In this document: one piece after another, positions 5,269-32,747 of the stretch
Position numbering within the stretch: the stretch's first letter is position 1
Layout of the letters: each line of letters begins with the position of its first letter
Virus record (IMG/VR): IMGVR_UViG_3300046002_007411
Span: 1-64,000 of that record
Direction: 5' to 3' (one strand)
Length of the DNA stretch: 64,000 bases
Source of the DNA: a virus
Translations under genes and position numbers: made by a program
The notes under the pieces: model-generated
The model's database searches: none
Told to the model about the DNA's origin: nothing
What the model saw: the letters and a program-made list of their open reading frames with translations, nothing else

Positions 5269-5463
5269 GGCCTAATAAGTTAAGCATGGCATTGTTATGA
5301 TTTGCAGATTACTGTGGCAAATATTAAAATAAAATAAAGAAAAGATAAATGTTCTGTAAATCCCTTGTATATAATCCTTTATTACCTGCATTAGTAACAT
5401 TTTATAATATCATTGGTATAGTGTTAGATTATGCTAATACTACTATGGGAAATATTTGAAATC

Positions 5464-6150
5464 ATGAAAATTATAAGTATCAGTGTTTATGGGCCACAAG
5501 ATCGCTATATTGTTGGGGCAAAACGTCAAATAGAACTAGCGCAACGATTCTTAGCGGATTGGACCGTGAGAATATACACAGATAACCCTGCTAATTTTAT
5601 GAACTGTGATAATGTTGATGTTGTAGAAGTAAAAGATAATAGTTTTGGTGTGTTTTGGAGATTCAGGCCTATGTTTGAAGATCCTAATAATATCGTTTTA
5701 GTTAGGGATAGCGACTCTAGATTGACTACAAGAGAAATTCTGTGCATAAAAGAATGGTTAGAAAGTGATGCTCAGTTACATATAATCAGGGATCATCAAG
5801 CACATTATGATTGGCCAATCATGGCTGGATTATTTGGTTATAAAGGAAAACTTCCTGATGCGTTGTATCAAAGTATGTTATTACAACAAATGAATCATTT
5901 CTATACAAGTGACCAAGTTTGGCTACGCGATGCGCTATGGCCTTTTGCGCAATCTTCGTGTTTGATTCACAGTATAACATCAACAGATTGGTTTAAACAT
6001 TCACGAACTCATTTACAAAATCCTTTTGATTTCTGTGGTAATGGCTGGAATGAACATGATTTGCCAATTTACCCTCCTGATTTTGGACCAACATGGAAAG
6101 ATTTTATATCAGACAATAATAAGTTTAGTTTAGGGCTGTTAGGACCTTAG
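5464..6150 (+). CDS. conserved hypothetical, glycosyltransferase-like
   Basis: KIISISVYG, WRFRPM, VRDSDSRL, IRDH..H...MAGLFG, DQ.WL; located in glycan cluster. Confidence 0.6.
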   Translation: MKIISISVYGPQDRYIVGAKRQIELAQRFLADWTVRIYTDNPANFMNCDNVDVVEVKDNSFGVFWRFRPMFEDPNNIVLVRDSDSRLTTREILCIKEWLESDAQLHIIRDHQAHYDWPIMAGLFGYKGKLPDALYQSMLLQQMNHFYTSDQVWLRDALWPFAQSSCLIHSITSTDWFKHSRTHLQNPFDFCGNGWNEHDLPIYPPDFGPTWKDFISDNNKFSLGLLGP

Positions 6151-6153
6151 GAG

Positions 6154-6870
6154 ATGTCTTTTATTGTTCATCATCATTTAGGTTTAGGAGACTTTTTTAT
6201 TTGCAATGGTTTAGTTAATAGCTTAGCTAAGCAACATGGTCAAATATTTTTAGCATGCAAAGAAAAAAACTACGAGACAATTGGTAGCTTATACAAAGAT
6301 AACTCACAAGTAAAAGTTTTTGTTGTAAGAAACGAGCCACAGGACATTTTTGATTTTAGTAACAAAAACCAAATACCAATTTTACATGTGGGGTTTCAGT
6401 TTTGTGATTTAAGTAACTTTGAAAGCAGTTTTTACTTACAGTTGGGTTATGACCCTCAAATGCAATATAGTGCGTTTACGTTGCCGTTGGACACCTTACA
6501 ACCAAATAAAATGTTTTTTGATTGGATTGATGATAAAGGCAAGGAATATGTTTTTGTACATAATCAAAGTAGTTTAGAAACATTTAATTTGCATATTGAG
6601 TCAAATCTACCTCAGTATATTGTCAAAAAGTCGCAAACCGCAAACATATTGGATTATGTTCCACTTATGCTTGCTGCAAAGGAAATACATTTGATCAACA
6701 GCAGTATACAAGCACTTGTTTGGCCTTTACTGATGCAAAACTATTTTGGTAAAACACAGATCTTTTTCCATGATTTTTCACAAGTAAGTGTCAATCAAAC
6801 TACACCTATTAAAGTTCCTAAACATCCTAATGTAAAGATTTTGCATTACACAACCCAATCTAAACCGTAA
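6154..6870 (+). CDS. hypothetical glycosyltransferase-like protein
   Basis: HHLGLGD N-terminal motif typical of GT-B (GT9-like) proteins; paralog of 2-616. Confidence 0.6.
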   Translation: MSFIVHHHLGLGDFFICNGLVNSLAKQHGQIFLACKEKNYETIGSLYKDNSQVKVFVVRNEPQDIFDFSNKNQIPILHVGFQFCDLSNFESSFYLQLGYDPQMQYSAFTLPLDTLQPNKMFFDWIDDKGKEYVFVHNQSSLETFNLHIESNLPQYIVKKSQTANILDYVPLMLAAKEIHLINSSIQALVWPLLMQNYFGKTQIFFHDFSQVSVNQTTPIKVPKHPNVKILHYTTQSKP

Positions 6871-27441: not shown

Positions 27442-27471
27442 GCTACCTATAGGATATTTATAAAAATCATG

Positions 27472-28146
27472 TTAACTCCAAAGCAAATTCATTTTGCCCT
27501 GCATGAACTCTCGAGCTGTTAGGGATTTTCCTGTGCGATGATCTTGTACAGCATCATCTTGAAATCGGATAGTGCGGATTTTATCTCCACGCTGTCCACT
27601 GCCAATCTGTATTTTGCGCTTGTGATTGTGTTTGTTGTTTTGGGACTCTGCGTGTTGATTTTCTATCAACACTTGCAGTGCCAGCAGCGCATTGCTGTAG
27701 CTATTTACCCGACTACGAGTTTGACTTGTGGTTGTAAAACCCGTGGGTATATGACGTAAACGGCAACTGTTGGCGTGTTTGTTTCTATGTTGGCCGCCAC
27801 AGCCTGTGCCGCTAAACCATGAGATTTCTATATCCTGGGGATTTATGATGTTTTTTTGATTATCGTGGTAATCAATAACAGCTACAGTCACGGTACTAGT
27901 ATGAACTCTACCGCGTCTTTCAGTGGGAGGAACACGTTGCATACGCAACCCCCCAGCTTCTTGATCTAGTTGTGAGAGATCTTGACCTTGAACAACAAAG
28001 CTATAGAACCCCGGTGCTTGCTGCTCGTGACTAACCAGTCAACCCAGGGCCAAGGCCAGCCGGCGATAAGCGCGGGCTAGGTCTTGAACAAATAACTTGC
28101 TATCTTCGCCGCCTTCAGCAGCACGTATCTCAATTATTTTTTTCAT
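27472..28146 (-). CDS. class I peptide release factor (RF1-type, lacking domain 1) with in-frame UGA at codon 36
   Basis: MKKIIEIRAAEGGEDSKLFVQDLARAYRRLALALG*LVSHEQ...EAGGLRMQRVPPTERRGRVHTS...GGQHRNK...KIRTI; single frame 28146-27472, TGA at 28039-28041. Confidence 0.85.
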
Positions 28147-28191
28147 AATGACATCTTCAGGGTGTGAAAATATTTAGCCGCACAGCCGCTA

Positions 28192-29613
28192 TCAGGCTTG
28201 AATAACCTGATAGCGATCACTTTTAATGGTTTGCTTCATTATGGCTTGGGGTGTGAAAGTTTCAGCAGCCAAAATGCTGGTCATAATGCTGGGACTAAAT
28301 CCGCTTACCAGGGCAGAACCTTGCTGGTCAAATCTCACCGGACTGTTTCCAGTGGCATTGGGCCGAGCATTCAAGTTCCACCAAACAAGACGTGGTAGCT
28401 CATATCCTGCCTGCTTGAACATGCTGCGAGCTAGATCCCATGCACTGACACTTACGCCGTGAGCTAAGCCGGAGTCAAACTCCATGTCACTTAGCACCAA
28501 CAGATATCGGGGCATTTGGTCAGCAGCTAGTTGGTTTACTATAGCCACTTGCAGAATGCTGCGAAATGCGCTTTCCAAGTTGGTATTATACCCCATGTTG
28601 TCGCGCATTTGCTGTAGCTTTGCCAAGAGATCACCTTTGAGAATGTCAATGTGACTGTCGCGTGTGAAGGTCAGCCACATGTCCCGGAAGGCGCCTTGTT
28701 GCTTGTCGGCAATATAGAGACCTAGGCTGATAGCCACCTGCATGCAAGTGAGCCCGGTACCTTGTTGGCCGCCCACAGGGGCACTCATGCTGCCGCTGAC
28801 ATCCACCATGGGCAAAATGCTGTTATCGCCGAGATAGTTGGGCAAAGCCTGCCACTGAGCTAGAGCCACTTGTGGATCGCCGCGAGTCACACTGCGGATG
28901 ACATCATAGGGATAAACAGCCTGAGCGTTTACATGCCCTTGTCCAGTTTGCAGACTTTGCTTCCACTCAGCATAACGTAGGGGATCTTGGCGATTAAAAG
29001 CCTTTTGATATCTAGCCGCAGCAACACTGGGAACATGATTATAGTTGATTTCCTGCCACTGCCGGGCACACATGGGAGTTTCCACAACAGTTGTCAACTC
29101 CACAAGCATTTTACGCCAGGCTTTTGGTGAGTAGTTGATATACCCACGCAGACGATTGGCAATAGCACCCTGACGAGGCATCCATTTTGCAGCCAAAGCG
29201 TTACCTTGCTTGAGTGCGCGGATAATCATGTCGGCAGCCAATAGCTGCATGCGAGCTGTAGAGAAAATCAAAAGATCGTCCCACCGTCCGTATTCGGGAA
29301 TACAAGCTAGATTGGCTTCCACACTGGCTGGATGATTTTTTTCCAGCCAGCGTAGAACTTGTCGGAAAATTTCCCGTTCACCAGCCCCTTGACGAATATC
29401 ACGTGCCCAAAACAAAACTTGCATGGCACTTAGGGCGTCGTGCTGATAAGCTCGTTCAAATGCGGTAGTGATATCTTTGCCACGGCTTGCGCCAATGGCA
29501 AAGAAAAGATCCACAACTGGATCGGCACTGGTGTCATATGTGACCATGCCATTTGCTGTTGTTGCTACAACAGCAGAATTTTCCACGGCCTGGGCAAAAG
29601 TGATTGTAGTCAT
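28192..29613 (-). CDS. DUF2828 TROVE/Ro60-like protein with C-terminal VWA domain
   Basis: T.NG, DLFF, RDIR.G.GER, YGRWDDL, AAKW.PR, VPS.A, MIDAS DVSGSM, SDMEFD, WWNL, VSGFS. Confidence 0.85.
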   Translation of the reverse strand: MTTITFAQAVENSAVVATTANGMVTYDTSADPVVDLFFAIGASRGKDITTAFERAYQHDALSAMQVLFWARDIRQGAGEREIFRQVLRWLEKNHPASVEANLACIPEYGRWDDLLIFSTARMQLLAADMIIRALKQGNALAAKWMPRQGAIANRLRGYINYSPKAWRKMLVELTTVVETPMCARQWQEINYNHVPSVAAARYQKAFNRQDPLRYAEWKQSLQTGQGHVNAQAVYPYDVIRSVTRGDPQVALAQWQALPNYLGDNSILPMVDVSGSMSAPVGGQQGTGLTCMQVAISLGLYIADKQQGAFRDMWLTFTRDSHIDILKGDLLAKLQQMRDNMGYNTNLESAFRSILQVAIVNQLAADQMPRYLLVLSDMEFDSGLAHGVSVSAWDLARSMFKQAGYELPRLVWWNLNARPNATGNSPVRFDQQGSALVSGFSPSIMTSILAAETFTPQAIMKQTIKSDRYQVIQA

Positions 29614-29861: not shown

Positions 29862-29880
29862 CGATAGTTACCAGGAAACA

Positions 29881-29997
29881 CAAGATCAACTTTTTGCCTC
29901 TTGCTCTACCCTTGAGCTACCGCCCCATTTATGGGGGAGCGGATTGGATTCGAACCAATAACACCTAGGTTGATTTTTGATTTGCTGTAATGATCCT
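29881..29997 (-). ncRNA. CAGCAA stem-RNA unit A with circularly permuted tRNA-like module (YrlA/Y-RNA-like)
   Basis: AGGATCA-TTA-CAGCAA...T arm ATTGG-TTCGAAT-CCAAT, CCGCTCC-C-CCA, TAAAT, GGGGCGG, D arm TA-GCTC-AAGGGTA-GAGC...TGATCTT-G. Confidence 0.8.
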
Positions 29998-31718: not shown

Positions 31719-32708
31719 TTATGTTTTTGGCACCAAGGTGTCTAATTTTCCACCTAGCAAATGGATCTTGTGTCCATGTTTTTGAATAGTCAAGGTTTTC
31801 AAACTCAACTCTGTGCGGCTGTCGCTTGTTGCTGCCAGCAACCCGCGTGCAAAGTTTTCAATATGACCCACACTGTAACCATATTGATTGGTTTGATCCA
31901 ACACACGCAAGAGTAGATTCTTAATCCTCAAATAGCCCAAATCACGCAGTTTTGGCCAACTCCAAGTCACAGCGTCAATAGTCACAGTTTGTAGATCTTG
32001 ATCAGCTAGGCAGTTTACCAGATCCCAAGCTTCACCAAGATGGTGAATACTGCGCAGGGCATTGACATCAGCAATGTCAAATCTTTGCAACACAGTGGGC
32101 CAGATAACTCCGCGAATGTAGTTGCGATCATAAGTTGTATCTTGGTTGCTGGGATCGTGACACCAAGAAATATCATGATGTCGATTATAGTCCATGATTT
32201 GCTCGCGTGTGACATTTAGCAGCGGGCGCACTACCTGCTTGTGAGGATCAAACCAACAGCTGGCTTGCGCCGTCATGGCTTTCAATCCCTTGATGCCACT
32301 GCCGCGAAAAATCCTCAGCAGAAAGTTTTCAATTTGATCGTTGGCATGATGTGCTGTGATAATGCAATCGATATCTTGCTGACAAAATGCTTGATATCTA
32401 GCACGGCGGGCTGCATGCTCAAGATTGCCTTGCAGTTGGTTTTTCTCAAGGGCAACCACTACATGTTCAAATCCCCAAGCTTGTGATGCCTGTTGCACTT
32501 GCTGTGCCCATTGTGCGCTGGCACCCATGATGTTGTGATTGACATGCACAACCAAAAACTCAGTTGTAAACTTGTCGCGATGTTGCGCAAACCAATGCAG
32601 CAGCATCATGCTGTCTGCTCCCCCACTTACTGCTATGACAGCTCGCTGGCTGTGTTGGAGAAGTTCTTGCACATCAGAGATTTTCACAAGCTGTGGCATG
32701 TATGTCAT
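31719..32708 (-). CDS. tilS: tRNA(Ile)-lysidine synthetase
   Basis: AVSGGADS, HVNH, EHAARRARY, TAHHANDQ.E, RPLL, DPSN...YDRNYIR. Confidence 0.95.
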   Translation of the reverse strand: MTYMPQLVKISDVQELLQHSQRAVIAVSGGADSMMLLHWFAQHRDKFTTEFLVVHVNHNIMGASAQWAQQVQQASQAWGFEHVVVALEKNQLQGNLEHAARRARYQAFCQQDIDCIITAHHANDQIENFLLRIFRGSGIKGLKAMTAQASCWFDPHKQVVRPLLNVTREQIMDYNRHHDISWCHDPSNQDTTYDRNYIRGVIWPTVLQRFDIADVNALRSIHHLGEAWDLVNCLADQDLQTVTIDAVTWSWPKLRDLGYLRIKNLLLRVLDQTNQYGYSVGHIENFARGLLAATSDSRTELSLKTLTIQKHGHKIHLLGGKLDTLVPKT

Positions 32709-32747
32709 ACCCTGAACATACATGCACCTAGCTCAGTTGTCAATGTG

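Follow-up and report, generated by a model that had tools for sequence, protein, structure and literature searches.

Codon 36 of a short RF1-type release factor gene from a virus is a UGA that very probably constitutes a gate, kept by selection and translated through. The gene was found on the minus strand of the window, i.e. the whole stretch of DNA analyzed here, which covers positions 1 to 64,000 of an IMG/VR virus record 111.7 kb in length, with a CheckV completeness of 27%. It counts 224 codons if the TGA is taken as sense. In our best explanation, which we hold to be likely, its product would be an RF1-type class I release factor without domain 1, encoded by a large T4-like phage, and its synthesis would depend on programmed readthrough of the UGA as Trp by a near-cognate tRNA-Trp that competes with host RF2.

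The gene is broken in the list of open reading frames, where it appears in two separate pieces, one of 158 codons starting at TTG 27948 and one of 35 codons. The original prediction had claimed that release factor homology continues in frame beyond the longer piece up to an ATG. This was borne out, since the protein profiles cross the TGA without a break and ATG, TGA and TAA lie in the same minus-strand frame (Table 1). The PPT (PxT) and GGQ motifs were also found as predicted. As to the TAAATA late promoter that had been proposed, a motif resembling such promoters is indeed present ahead of the ATG, and its function as a promoter is probable from this resemblance. The true terminators of the 155 family genes described below were TAA in 142 cases, TGA in 13 and TAG in none.

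Table 1. Parts of the release factor gene, with positions counted along the 64-kb window.
Feature	Position	Strand	Basis or remark
Short RF1-type release factor gene, 224 codons with TGA counted as sense	27472..28146	-	
Start codon ATG	28144..28146	-	
CTAAATAT, T4-late-promoter-like motif	28170..28177	-	24 nt 5' of ATG; putative promoter
Codons 1-35: first strand of release factor domain 2 and helix alpha-5, with EGGED tip	28042..28146	-	profiles, alignment, AlphaFold2
UGA gate, codon 36 (GGU UGA C), at the conserved RF1 Trp position	28039..28041	-	alignment, 155/155 homologues; DNA context GGT TGA CTG
Codons 37-224: remainder of domain 2, domain 3 (GGQ), domain 4	27475..28038	-	profiles, Foldseek
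PPT tripeptide (PxT, RF1-type anticodon-like motif), inside ...QRVPPTE...	27922..27930	-	translation, alignment
GGQ peptidyl-tRNA hydrolysis motif	27790..27798	-	translation, alignment
True terminator UAA (UAA-C)	27472..27474	-	sequence

In the protein, the Pfam domain PCRF (PF03462, 9e-19) covered residues 4-88 and the domain RF-1 (PF00472, 3e-17) residues 100-204. The NCBIfam prfA profile aligned residues 4-221 with its positions 107-333 of 347. The two prfA equivalog scores of 185 and 178 bits stayed far under their cut-offs of 400 and 423 because domain 1 is missing: the first ~106 profile positions, and with them the four-domain architecture of RF1, are absent, and the genes of all relatives begin with the first strand of domain 2. 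Other profiles scored 93 bits (prfB), 38 bits (PrfH, TIGR03072, cut-off 167) and 16 bits (ArfB). With a PrfH score below the cut-off and no RtcB among the 13 neighbouring genes examined, the protein does not qualify as a PrfH.

The phmmer alignment to Thermotoga maritima RF1 (1rq0/2fvo) placed codon 36 opposite the Trp of a conserved Gly-Trp, confirming the earlier assignment of the TGA to this residue. In an alignment of nine family sequences, called A1 in the following, the GGQ motif (residues 117-119) was invariant, as were Q70, P73-P74-T75, H82-T83 and E11-G12-G13, all of them aligned to RF1. The functional meaning of such RF1-type decoding residues is known from published structures; this residue set reportedly shuts out a G at the second codon position, as described by Laurberg et al. 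in 2008. An AlphaFold2 model (pLDDT 85.5), for which nine members of the family were used, predicted a strand for residues 2-9 and helix alpha-5 for residues 14-34. Its best Foldseek matches were RF1 structures on the 70S ribosome (TMq 0.84-0.86, E 5e-21), in agreement with an RF1 fold of domains 2 to 4. The 35 codons ahead of the stop are thus predicted to be an integral part of the decoding domain, and a product initiated at an internal start would miss this part.

Homologous DNA was drawn from viral contigs, metagenome contigs and bacterial genome contigs and yielded, after removal of duplicates, 155 distinct genes anchored at QR[VI]PPTE, with protein identities to the window gene of about 42-98% (~42% for contig L011). 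TGA occupied the column of codon 36 in 155 of these 155 genes, which is far beyond chance; this and all other statistics across homologues ignore shared ancestry. TGG, TAG and TAA were found at this column in none of the 155, and the preceding codon encoded Gly in nearly all of them. The objection raised in the original prediction itself, that the homologues might all carry TGG, fails wholly, as no homologue with an in-frame TGG was found. The claim that the UGA is decoded in a programmed manner is, by the same count, strongly supported. Residues on both flanks of the TGA were invariant alongside synonymous change, the pattern of a conserved stop in programmed readthrough. Synonymous sites of the family were well mixed, with a mean codon identity of 0.45 where the residue was the same. 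Given this mixing, and with TGG a single transition away, the retention of TGA indicates that the stop as such is under selection.

Many relatives of full-length appearance (222-232 residues), all of them on contigs of ~0.8-6 kb, came up in a search of 5.8 billion proteins. Among the matches listed (P0003-P0120), 109 of 120 proteins had this appearance, and database proteins P0049, P0078 and P0090 were relatives of the window gene at 60-71% identity. All four 'full-length' proteins that we traced to their DNA fitted only with TGA read as Trp. On the evidence of these four, the full-length entries are code-4 gene calls and not TGG alleles. Gene callers truncate these genes or, on short contigs, take code 4, and in the latter case they put false TGA=Trp proteins into the databases.

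The nucleotide context of the gate differs from that of a true terminator. The base following the gate was A in 119 genes, G in 19, C in 17 and T in none, compared with a U after 75 of the 155 true terminators of the same genes (0/155 at the gate; Fisher p 3e-28, uncorrected for relatedness). In E. coli, UGA-U is said to be the strongest opal signal and UGA-C the weakest, following the work of Poole, Brown and Tate in 1995. The weak UGA-C context stressed in the original prediction therefore holds for the window gene but does not extend to the family, where C occurs in the 17 genes mentioned.

Across the family, no common RNA structure around the gate was detected (RNAalifold, 0 pairs), the folds being lineage-specific only. 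The 75 nucleotides 3' of the UGA were nevertheless more structured than expected: in 54 non-redundant genes the mean z was -2.6 against dinucleotide shuffles, with 67% of the genes below -2, compared with -0.7 to -1.1 for three control stretches taken from these genes (Wilcoxon p 5e-8 to 3e-6). In the main subfamily, the synonymous sites of codons 37-45 are constrained, with codon identities of 0.65-0.97, where comparable residues at other places have 0.2-0.5. The mean downstream z varied with the tetranucleotide of the gate, from -1.4 for UGA-C to -2.8 for UGA-A and -3.3 for UGA-G (one-sided Mann-Whitney p 0.007). This trend, which is no proof, suggests two routes to a leaky stop, either a weak tetranucleotide or a downstream hairpin. 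The window gene, with UGA-C, had a downstream z of about 0, i.e. no significant structure, and a weak Shine-Dalgarno sequence, so that its readthrough could be very low.

The genome of the window uses the standard code. Code-11 open reading frames cover 92-95% of its DNA, and TGA ends 32 of its 102 long open reading frames. Two complete relatives, G001 (363,943 bp) and G003 (363,531 bp), were read whole; there TGA ends 117 of 352 and 75 of 418 genes, respectively, and the share of TGA among gene ends ranges from 18 to 33% over the phage and these two relatives. A genome-wide reassignment of TGA or TAG was considered and rejected, as code 4 did not lengthen the longest open reading frames and TGA connected same-frame pieces no more often than TAG or TAA did. 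The marks of a code 4 phage were absent, the tRNA complement being judged on the complete relatives. In the window's genome, no gene other than that of the release factor had a free in-frame piece upstream to which a TGA connects it. In G001 and G003, too, the release factor gene was the sole convincing case of an in-frame TGA; the few other candidates for in-frame stops looked like chance once translated.

ARAGORN detected 31 tRNA genes in G001 and 45 in G003, plus a tmRNA, including one tRNA-Trp(CCA) each and one or two tRNA(CUA). No tRNA with a UCA anticodon and no tRNA-Sec was found by ARAGORN in these two genomes, and no tRNA at all in the 111.7 kb of the window's genome. Both relatives contain a single gene with a release factor domain and no RF2, and in G001, G003 and a further relative, G002, the release factor gene lies beside or within a tRNA array. 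The amber-anticodon tRNA(CUA) genes are located at 339529-339603 in G001 and at 252271-252344 and 252952-253023 in G003; TAG terminates 22 of 352 genes in G001 and 45 of 418 in G003, and no gene with an in-frame TAG was evident.

These data make a dedicated opal suppressor, the alternative decoder named in the original prediction, unlikely, since the two complete relatives do not encode any tRNA with a UCA anticodon. A general opal suppressor is an unlikely decoder, too, as it would lengthen a third of the phage's own proteins. Near-cognate tRNA-Trp is the natural misreader of UGA in bacteria, as illustrated by the Q-beta A1 protein and by the Hirsh suppressor work, and we infer that it is the remaining decoder of codon 36, inserting Trp. 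Decoding by tRNA-Trp would explain why the stop is located at a Trp codon, since readthrough restores the native residue, and why it is always UGA and never UAG, both of which are one transition away from UGG. A Hirsh-type feature in the phage tRNA-Trp was also looked for and dismissed: position 11-24 is U-A in G001 and C-G in G003, without a consistent signal.

The neighbouring genes encode topoisomerase II subunits, a NUDIX protein, a PP-loop ATPase, a GT2 glycosyltransferase, a dCMP deaminase, ClpX, a cell-wall hydrolase, a DUF2828/TROVE-like protein and four proteins that had no Pfam match. The motif [ACT]TAAATA was found upstream of 27 of 111 genes in the 111.7-kb genome, where 2.5 were expected. 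It resembles the T4 late promoter, which suggests a corresponding function, and the release factor gene is probably transcribed from such a late-type promoter. For a longer form, [ACT]TAAATA[TAC], counted up to 80 nt upstream, the tally was likewise 27 of 111 genes against 2.5 expected, with examples at 27447-27456 and 28170-28177 of the window. The sequence TATAAATA, a T4-type late-promoter-like signal, has six occurrences in the genome, all six of them upstream of genes.

Several side observations were made in the same window. The PP-loop ATPase (31719-32732, minus strand; PF01171, 2e-53) belongs to the family of the tRNA(Ile)-lysidine synthase TilS, in keeping with the translation-related gene load of these phages. 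A match to the Rfam family YrlA (Y RNA-like) at 29880-29983 on the minus strand (E 5.7e-4, 31.7 bits, for a gathering score of 69) is intergenic and lies directly upstream of the DUF2828/DUF7788 TROVE-like gene (28192-29613, minus strand), which matches PHROG 850 'RNA-binding protein' (2e-136). The two could form a phage Ro/Y-RNA-like pair. A functional tie of the release factor to this TROVE-like gene was discarded, because the adjacency was seen only in the near-identical contig L002 and the gene is absent from both complete relatives. On the plus strand, 5428-6870 contains two open frames of 240 codons that are in register, with one TAG between them; they showed no Pfam match and no mutual similarity and are probably two adjacent genes.

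One family member escapes the rule. L012 (IMGVR_UViG_3300031673_000789, site 472-484) is the sole one with TGG at codon 36; its zero frame stops at TAT CTT TAG C, two codons before that position, and coding resumes in the +1 frame. This shift site is like that of prfB with UAG in place of UGA, and no clear Shine-Dalgarno-like element precedes it. Searches among viral contigs with the L012 protein and with a DNA pattern for further CUU-stop variants recovered L012 only. Among bacteria, 37 RF1-like loci (within L325-L396) require a +1 shift, 25 of them at CTT TGA and 12 at CTT TAG. They are mostly from Myxococcota and also from Thiobacillus denitrificans, Achromobacter anxifer and Hahella, and many carry GGAGG and a 3-nt spacer before the CTT, i.e. 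the prfB cassette. The window gene does not have this cassette: its zero frame runs on past the TGA, and the preceding codon is GGT.

The gate at the Trp codon was also encountered in contigs of Alphaproteobacteria, including the isolates Thalassospira xianhensis and Rhodovibrio sodomensis, where the flanks of the gene held no informative domains. In other bacterial subfamilies the TGA lies about 10-15 codons further on. Phages of 600-735 kb (L245-L248; LR745206, LR756504, LR756502, LR756501) encode short RF1-type genes at 35-40% identity whose in-frame TGAs, one or two per gene, lie outside the column of the Trp codon, and the 50 kb around the LR745206 and LR756501 genes look standard-code. 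Canonical full-length prfA genes (PAT or PVT) recovered in the same bacterial search had no gate. The occurrence of TGA, CUU-UGA and CUU-UAG gates in sister genes points to a recoding gate as a property of the whole short PPT-type family, with several origins. L263-L310 proved to be small stand-alone GGQ-domain genes and not gated relatives. The viral proteins of L263-L306, of ~100 residues and starting with MKITEDQFRYEWFSGTGKGGQ, have a GGQ region much like that of the short RF1-type family and are possibly ArfB-like rescue factors.

In the mechanism that we favor, ribosomes starting at ATG 28146 would reach the UGA at codon 36, where most of them would terminate via host RF2 and release a 35-residue peptide without the PxT and GGQ parts. 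A minority would decode the UGA with a near-cognate tRNA-Trp (CCA anticodon) of host or phage origin. Reading as Trp would bring back the ancestral residue and give rise to the full 224-residue factor which, judging from its RF1-type decoding residues, should read UAA and UAG and not its own gate. The output of factor would be low and should rise as RF2 activity per ribosome drops, for example late in infection, when host prfB could no longer be re-expressed. A dependence on low RF2 activity, as put forward in the original prediction, may reasonably be expected from the chemistry. As for the purpose of the gate, we see about even chances that it lies in sensing RF2. The presence of CUU-UAG besides CUU-UGA in sister genes fits poorly with a purely RF2-specific sensor superfamily-wide, and argues that the superfamily gate may sense termination capacity more generally. 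It is conceivable, although we would put it forward only tentatively, that synthesis of short phage or prophage-like RF1-type factors is almost always gated by recoding, through a UGA read at a Trp codon or through a prfB-like +1 shift at CUU-UGA/UAG, and thereby senses termination capacity, the present gene coupling a UAA/UAG factor to a shortage of RF2.

The UGA might act as a fixed attenuator only, holding a potentially toxic factor to ~1% of initiations without any RF2 signal. Release factor overexpression does lower fitness in B. subtilis (PMC12421855), the window gene has neither downstream structure nor a strong Shine-Dalgarno sequence, and the sister shift cassettes take either UGA or UAG. 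A weak ribosome binding site or promoter would suffice for such a purpose, however, and would drift, whereas stop, column and the avoidance of U at +4 are kept throughout the 155 genes and other subfamilies gained stops at other columns. Readthrough is, moreover, physically tied to the ratio of RF2 to tRNA-Trp, which makes some coupling unavoidable, and we consider a mere attenuator unlikely. An autoregulation like that of prfB, in which the short factor would also read UGA and end its own synthesis at codon 36 when abundant, seems more doubtful still. It would be in line with the UGA (25) and UAG (12) of the related SD-CUU-stop +1 cassettes, which are apparently interchangeable, with the CUU-UAG-C of L012 and with the PPT tripeptide, unlike the PAT/PVT of canonical full-length prfA genes. 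The RF1-set residues (Gln before PxT, Thr of PxT, His-Thr of RxHTS) are invariant in A1, however, and the protein scores 185 bits with prfA and 93 bits with prfB.

A stage-specific change of the code, by which a phage tRNA(UCA), possibly encoded in the unsequenced 73% of the genome, would read TGA as Trp late in infection, has a precedent in the TGA-recoded Jade phages, which hold RF1 beside a suppressor tRNA and TrpRS (bioRxiv 10.1101/2021.08.26.457843). The low completeness of the window's genome and its lack of any tRNA in 111.7 kb leave room for such a gene. The complete relatives are without UCA despite their large tRNA sets, however, TGA is an ordinary terminator in these phages, no other gene needs a sense TGA, and the extension of a third of the proteins weighs against a general suppressor here as well; we regard this explanation as very improbable. 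Hardly any weight is left for a pseudogene, a sequencing error, a selenocysteine codon or a split gene re-initiated past the stop. A lone in-frame stop in one assembly usually means damage, and ORF callers give the downstream piece only (e.g. P0002), but 155 independent assemblies show the identical TGA, and purifying selection acts on either flank of it, which does not fit with damage. Selenocysteine would call for a SECIS-like hairpin, of which RNAalifold found no conserved trace, and for a tRNA-Sec, which is absent from the relatives; the codon, in addition, aligns to Trp. Re-initiation is countered by the lack of a conserved in-frame start past the stop, the first in the window gene being a TTG at codon 67, and an internal start would, according to the model, cut off helix alpha-5 and three strands.

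Readthrough of a selected UGA by tRNA-Trp thus remains our preferred explanation, and it bears on a wider question. Recoding control of release factor genes has so far been described only for RF2. The phage family studied here shows that RF1-type genes can be gated, too, and a gate at a stop that its own factor should not read would link the two termination pathways. If true, this would be the first cross-regulation between release factor classes and a means for a virus to keep termination going after host shut-off. The gate may also account for the presence of a release factor in large phages that bring along tRNA sets of their own. Being short and easily cloned, the cassette could serve as a tool for bacterial studies of UGA readthrough and of RF2 sufficiency.

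Prince et al. (2025, PMC12421855) surveyed over 12,000 bacterial genomes and reported no programmed recoding in prfA. RF1 and RF2 were listed in huge phages by Al-Shayeb et al., where internal stops were not noted, and a full-text search of the literature returned no account of an in-frame UGA or a frameshift in a phage RF1-type gene. In the +1 frameshift of bacterial prfB (SD-like element, 3 nt, CUU UGA C), recoding of an early in-frame UGA likewise sets the output of a release factor, and L012 and the 37 bacterial sister loci share the architecture of this cassette. The window gene, in contrast, keeps its frame; the stop stands in for a Trp codon and needs to be read through, and UGA is not the cognate codon of an RF1-type factor, so that cross-regulation instead of self-regulation would result. 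The contrast with the RF2 frameshift drawn in the original prediction is justified in that the frame is kept, yet it is less sharp than it appeared, as sister genes use CUU-UGA/UAG +1 cassettes.

A close parallel for the decoding step proposed here is the coat gene of Q-beta, where UGA readthrough reportedly yields the A1 protein, the Trp being supplied by ordinary tRNA-Trp, as found by Weiner and Weber in 1971-73. There as here, a phage gene would make use of low-level programmed readthrough of UGA by the near-cognate host tRNA-Trp. In Q-beta, however, readthrough adds a second, C-terminally extended product to a terminated one that is itself the main functional protein. In the window gene, the terminated product is a fragment of 35 residues, only the readthrough product can be the factor, and the stop occupies an ancestral Trp position. 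The 'code change module' of the Jade phages, in which genomes recoded to code 4 carry RF1 genes in the standard code (Borges et al., bioRxiv 10.1101/2021.08.26.457843), likewise places an RF1-type factor in a phage that brings translation parts along, as the tRNA arrays and tmRNA in the relatives of the window phage show. It differs in that RF1 comes with tRNA(UCA) and TrpRS and that the genomes have many in-frame TGAs, whereas the window phage uses the standard code, its complete relatives are free of tRNA(UCA), and the release factor gene alone has an in-frame TGA. With PrfH, finally, the window factor shares a length shorter than RF1 and RF2 and the lack of domain 1. It differs from PrfH and ArfB, which do not have the full architecture for stop codon decoding, in that it keeps both the PxT loop and the tip of helix alpha-5.
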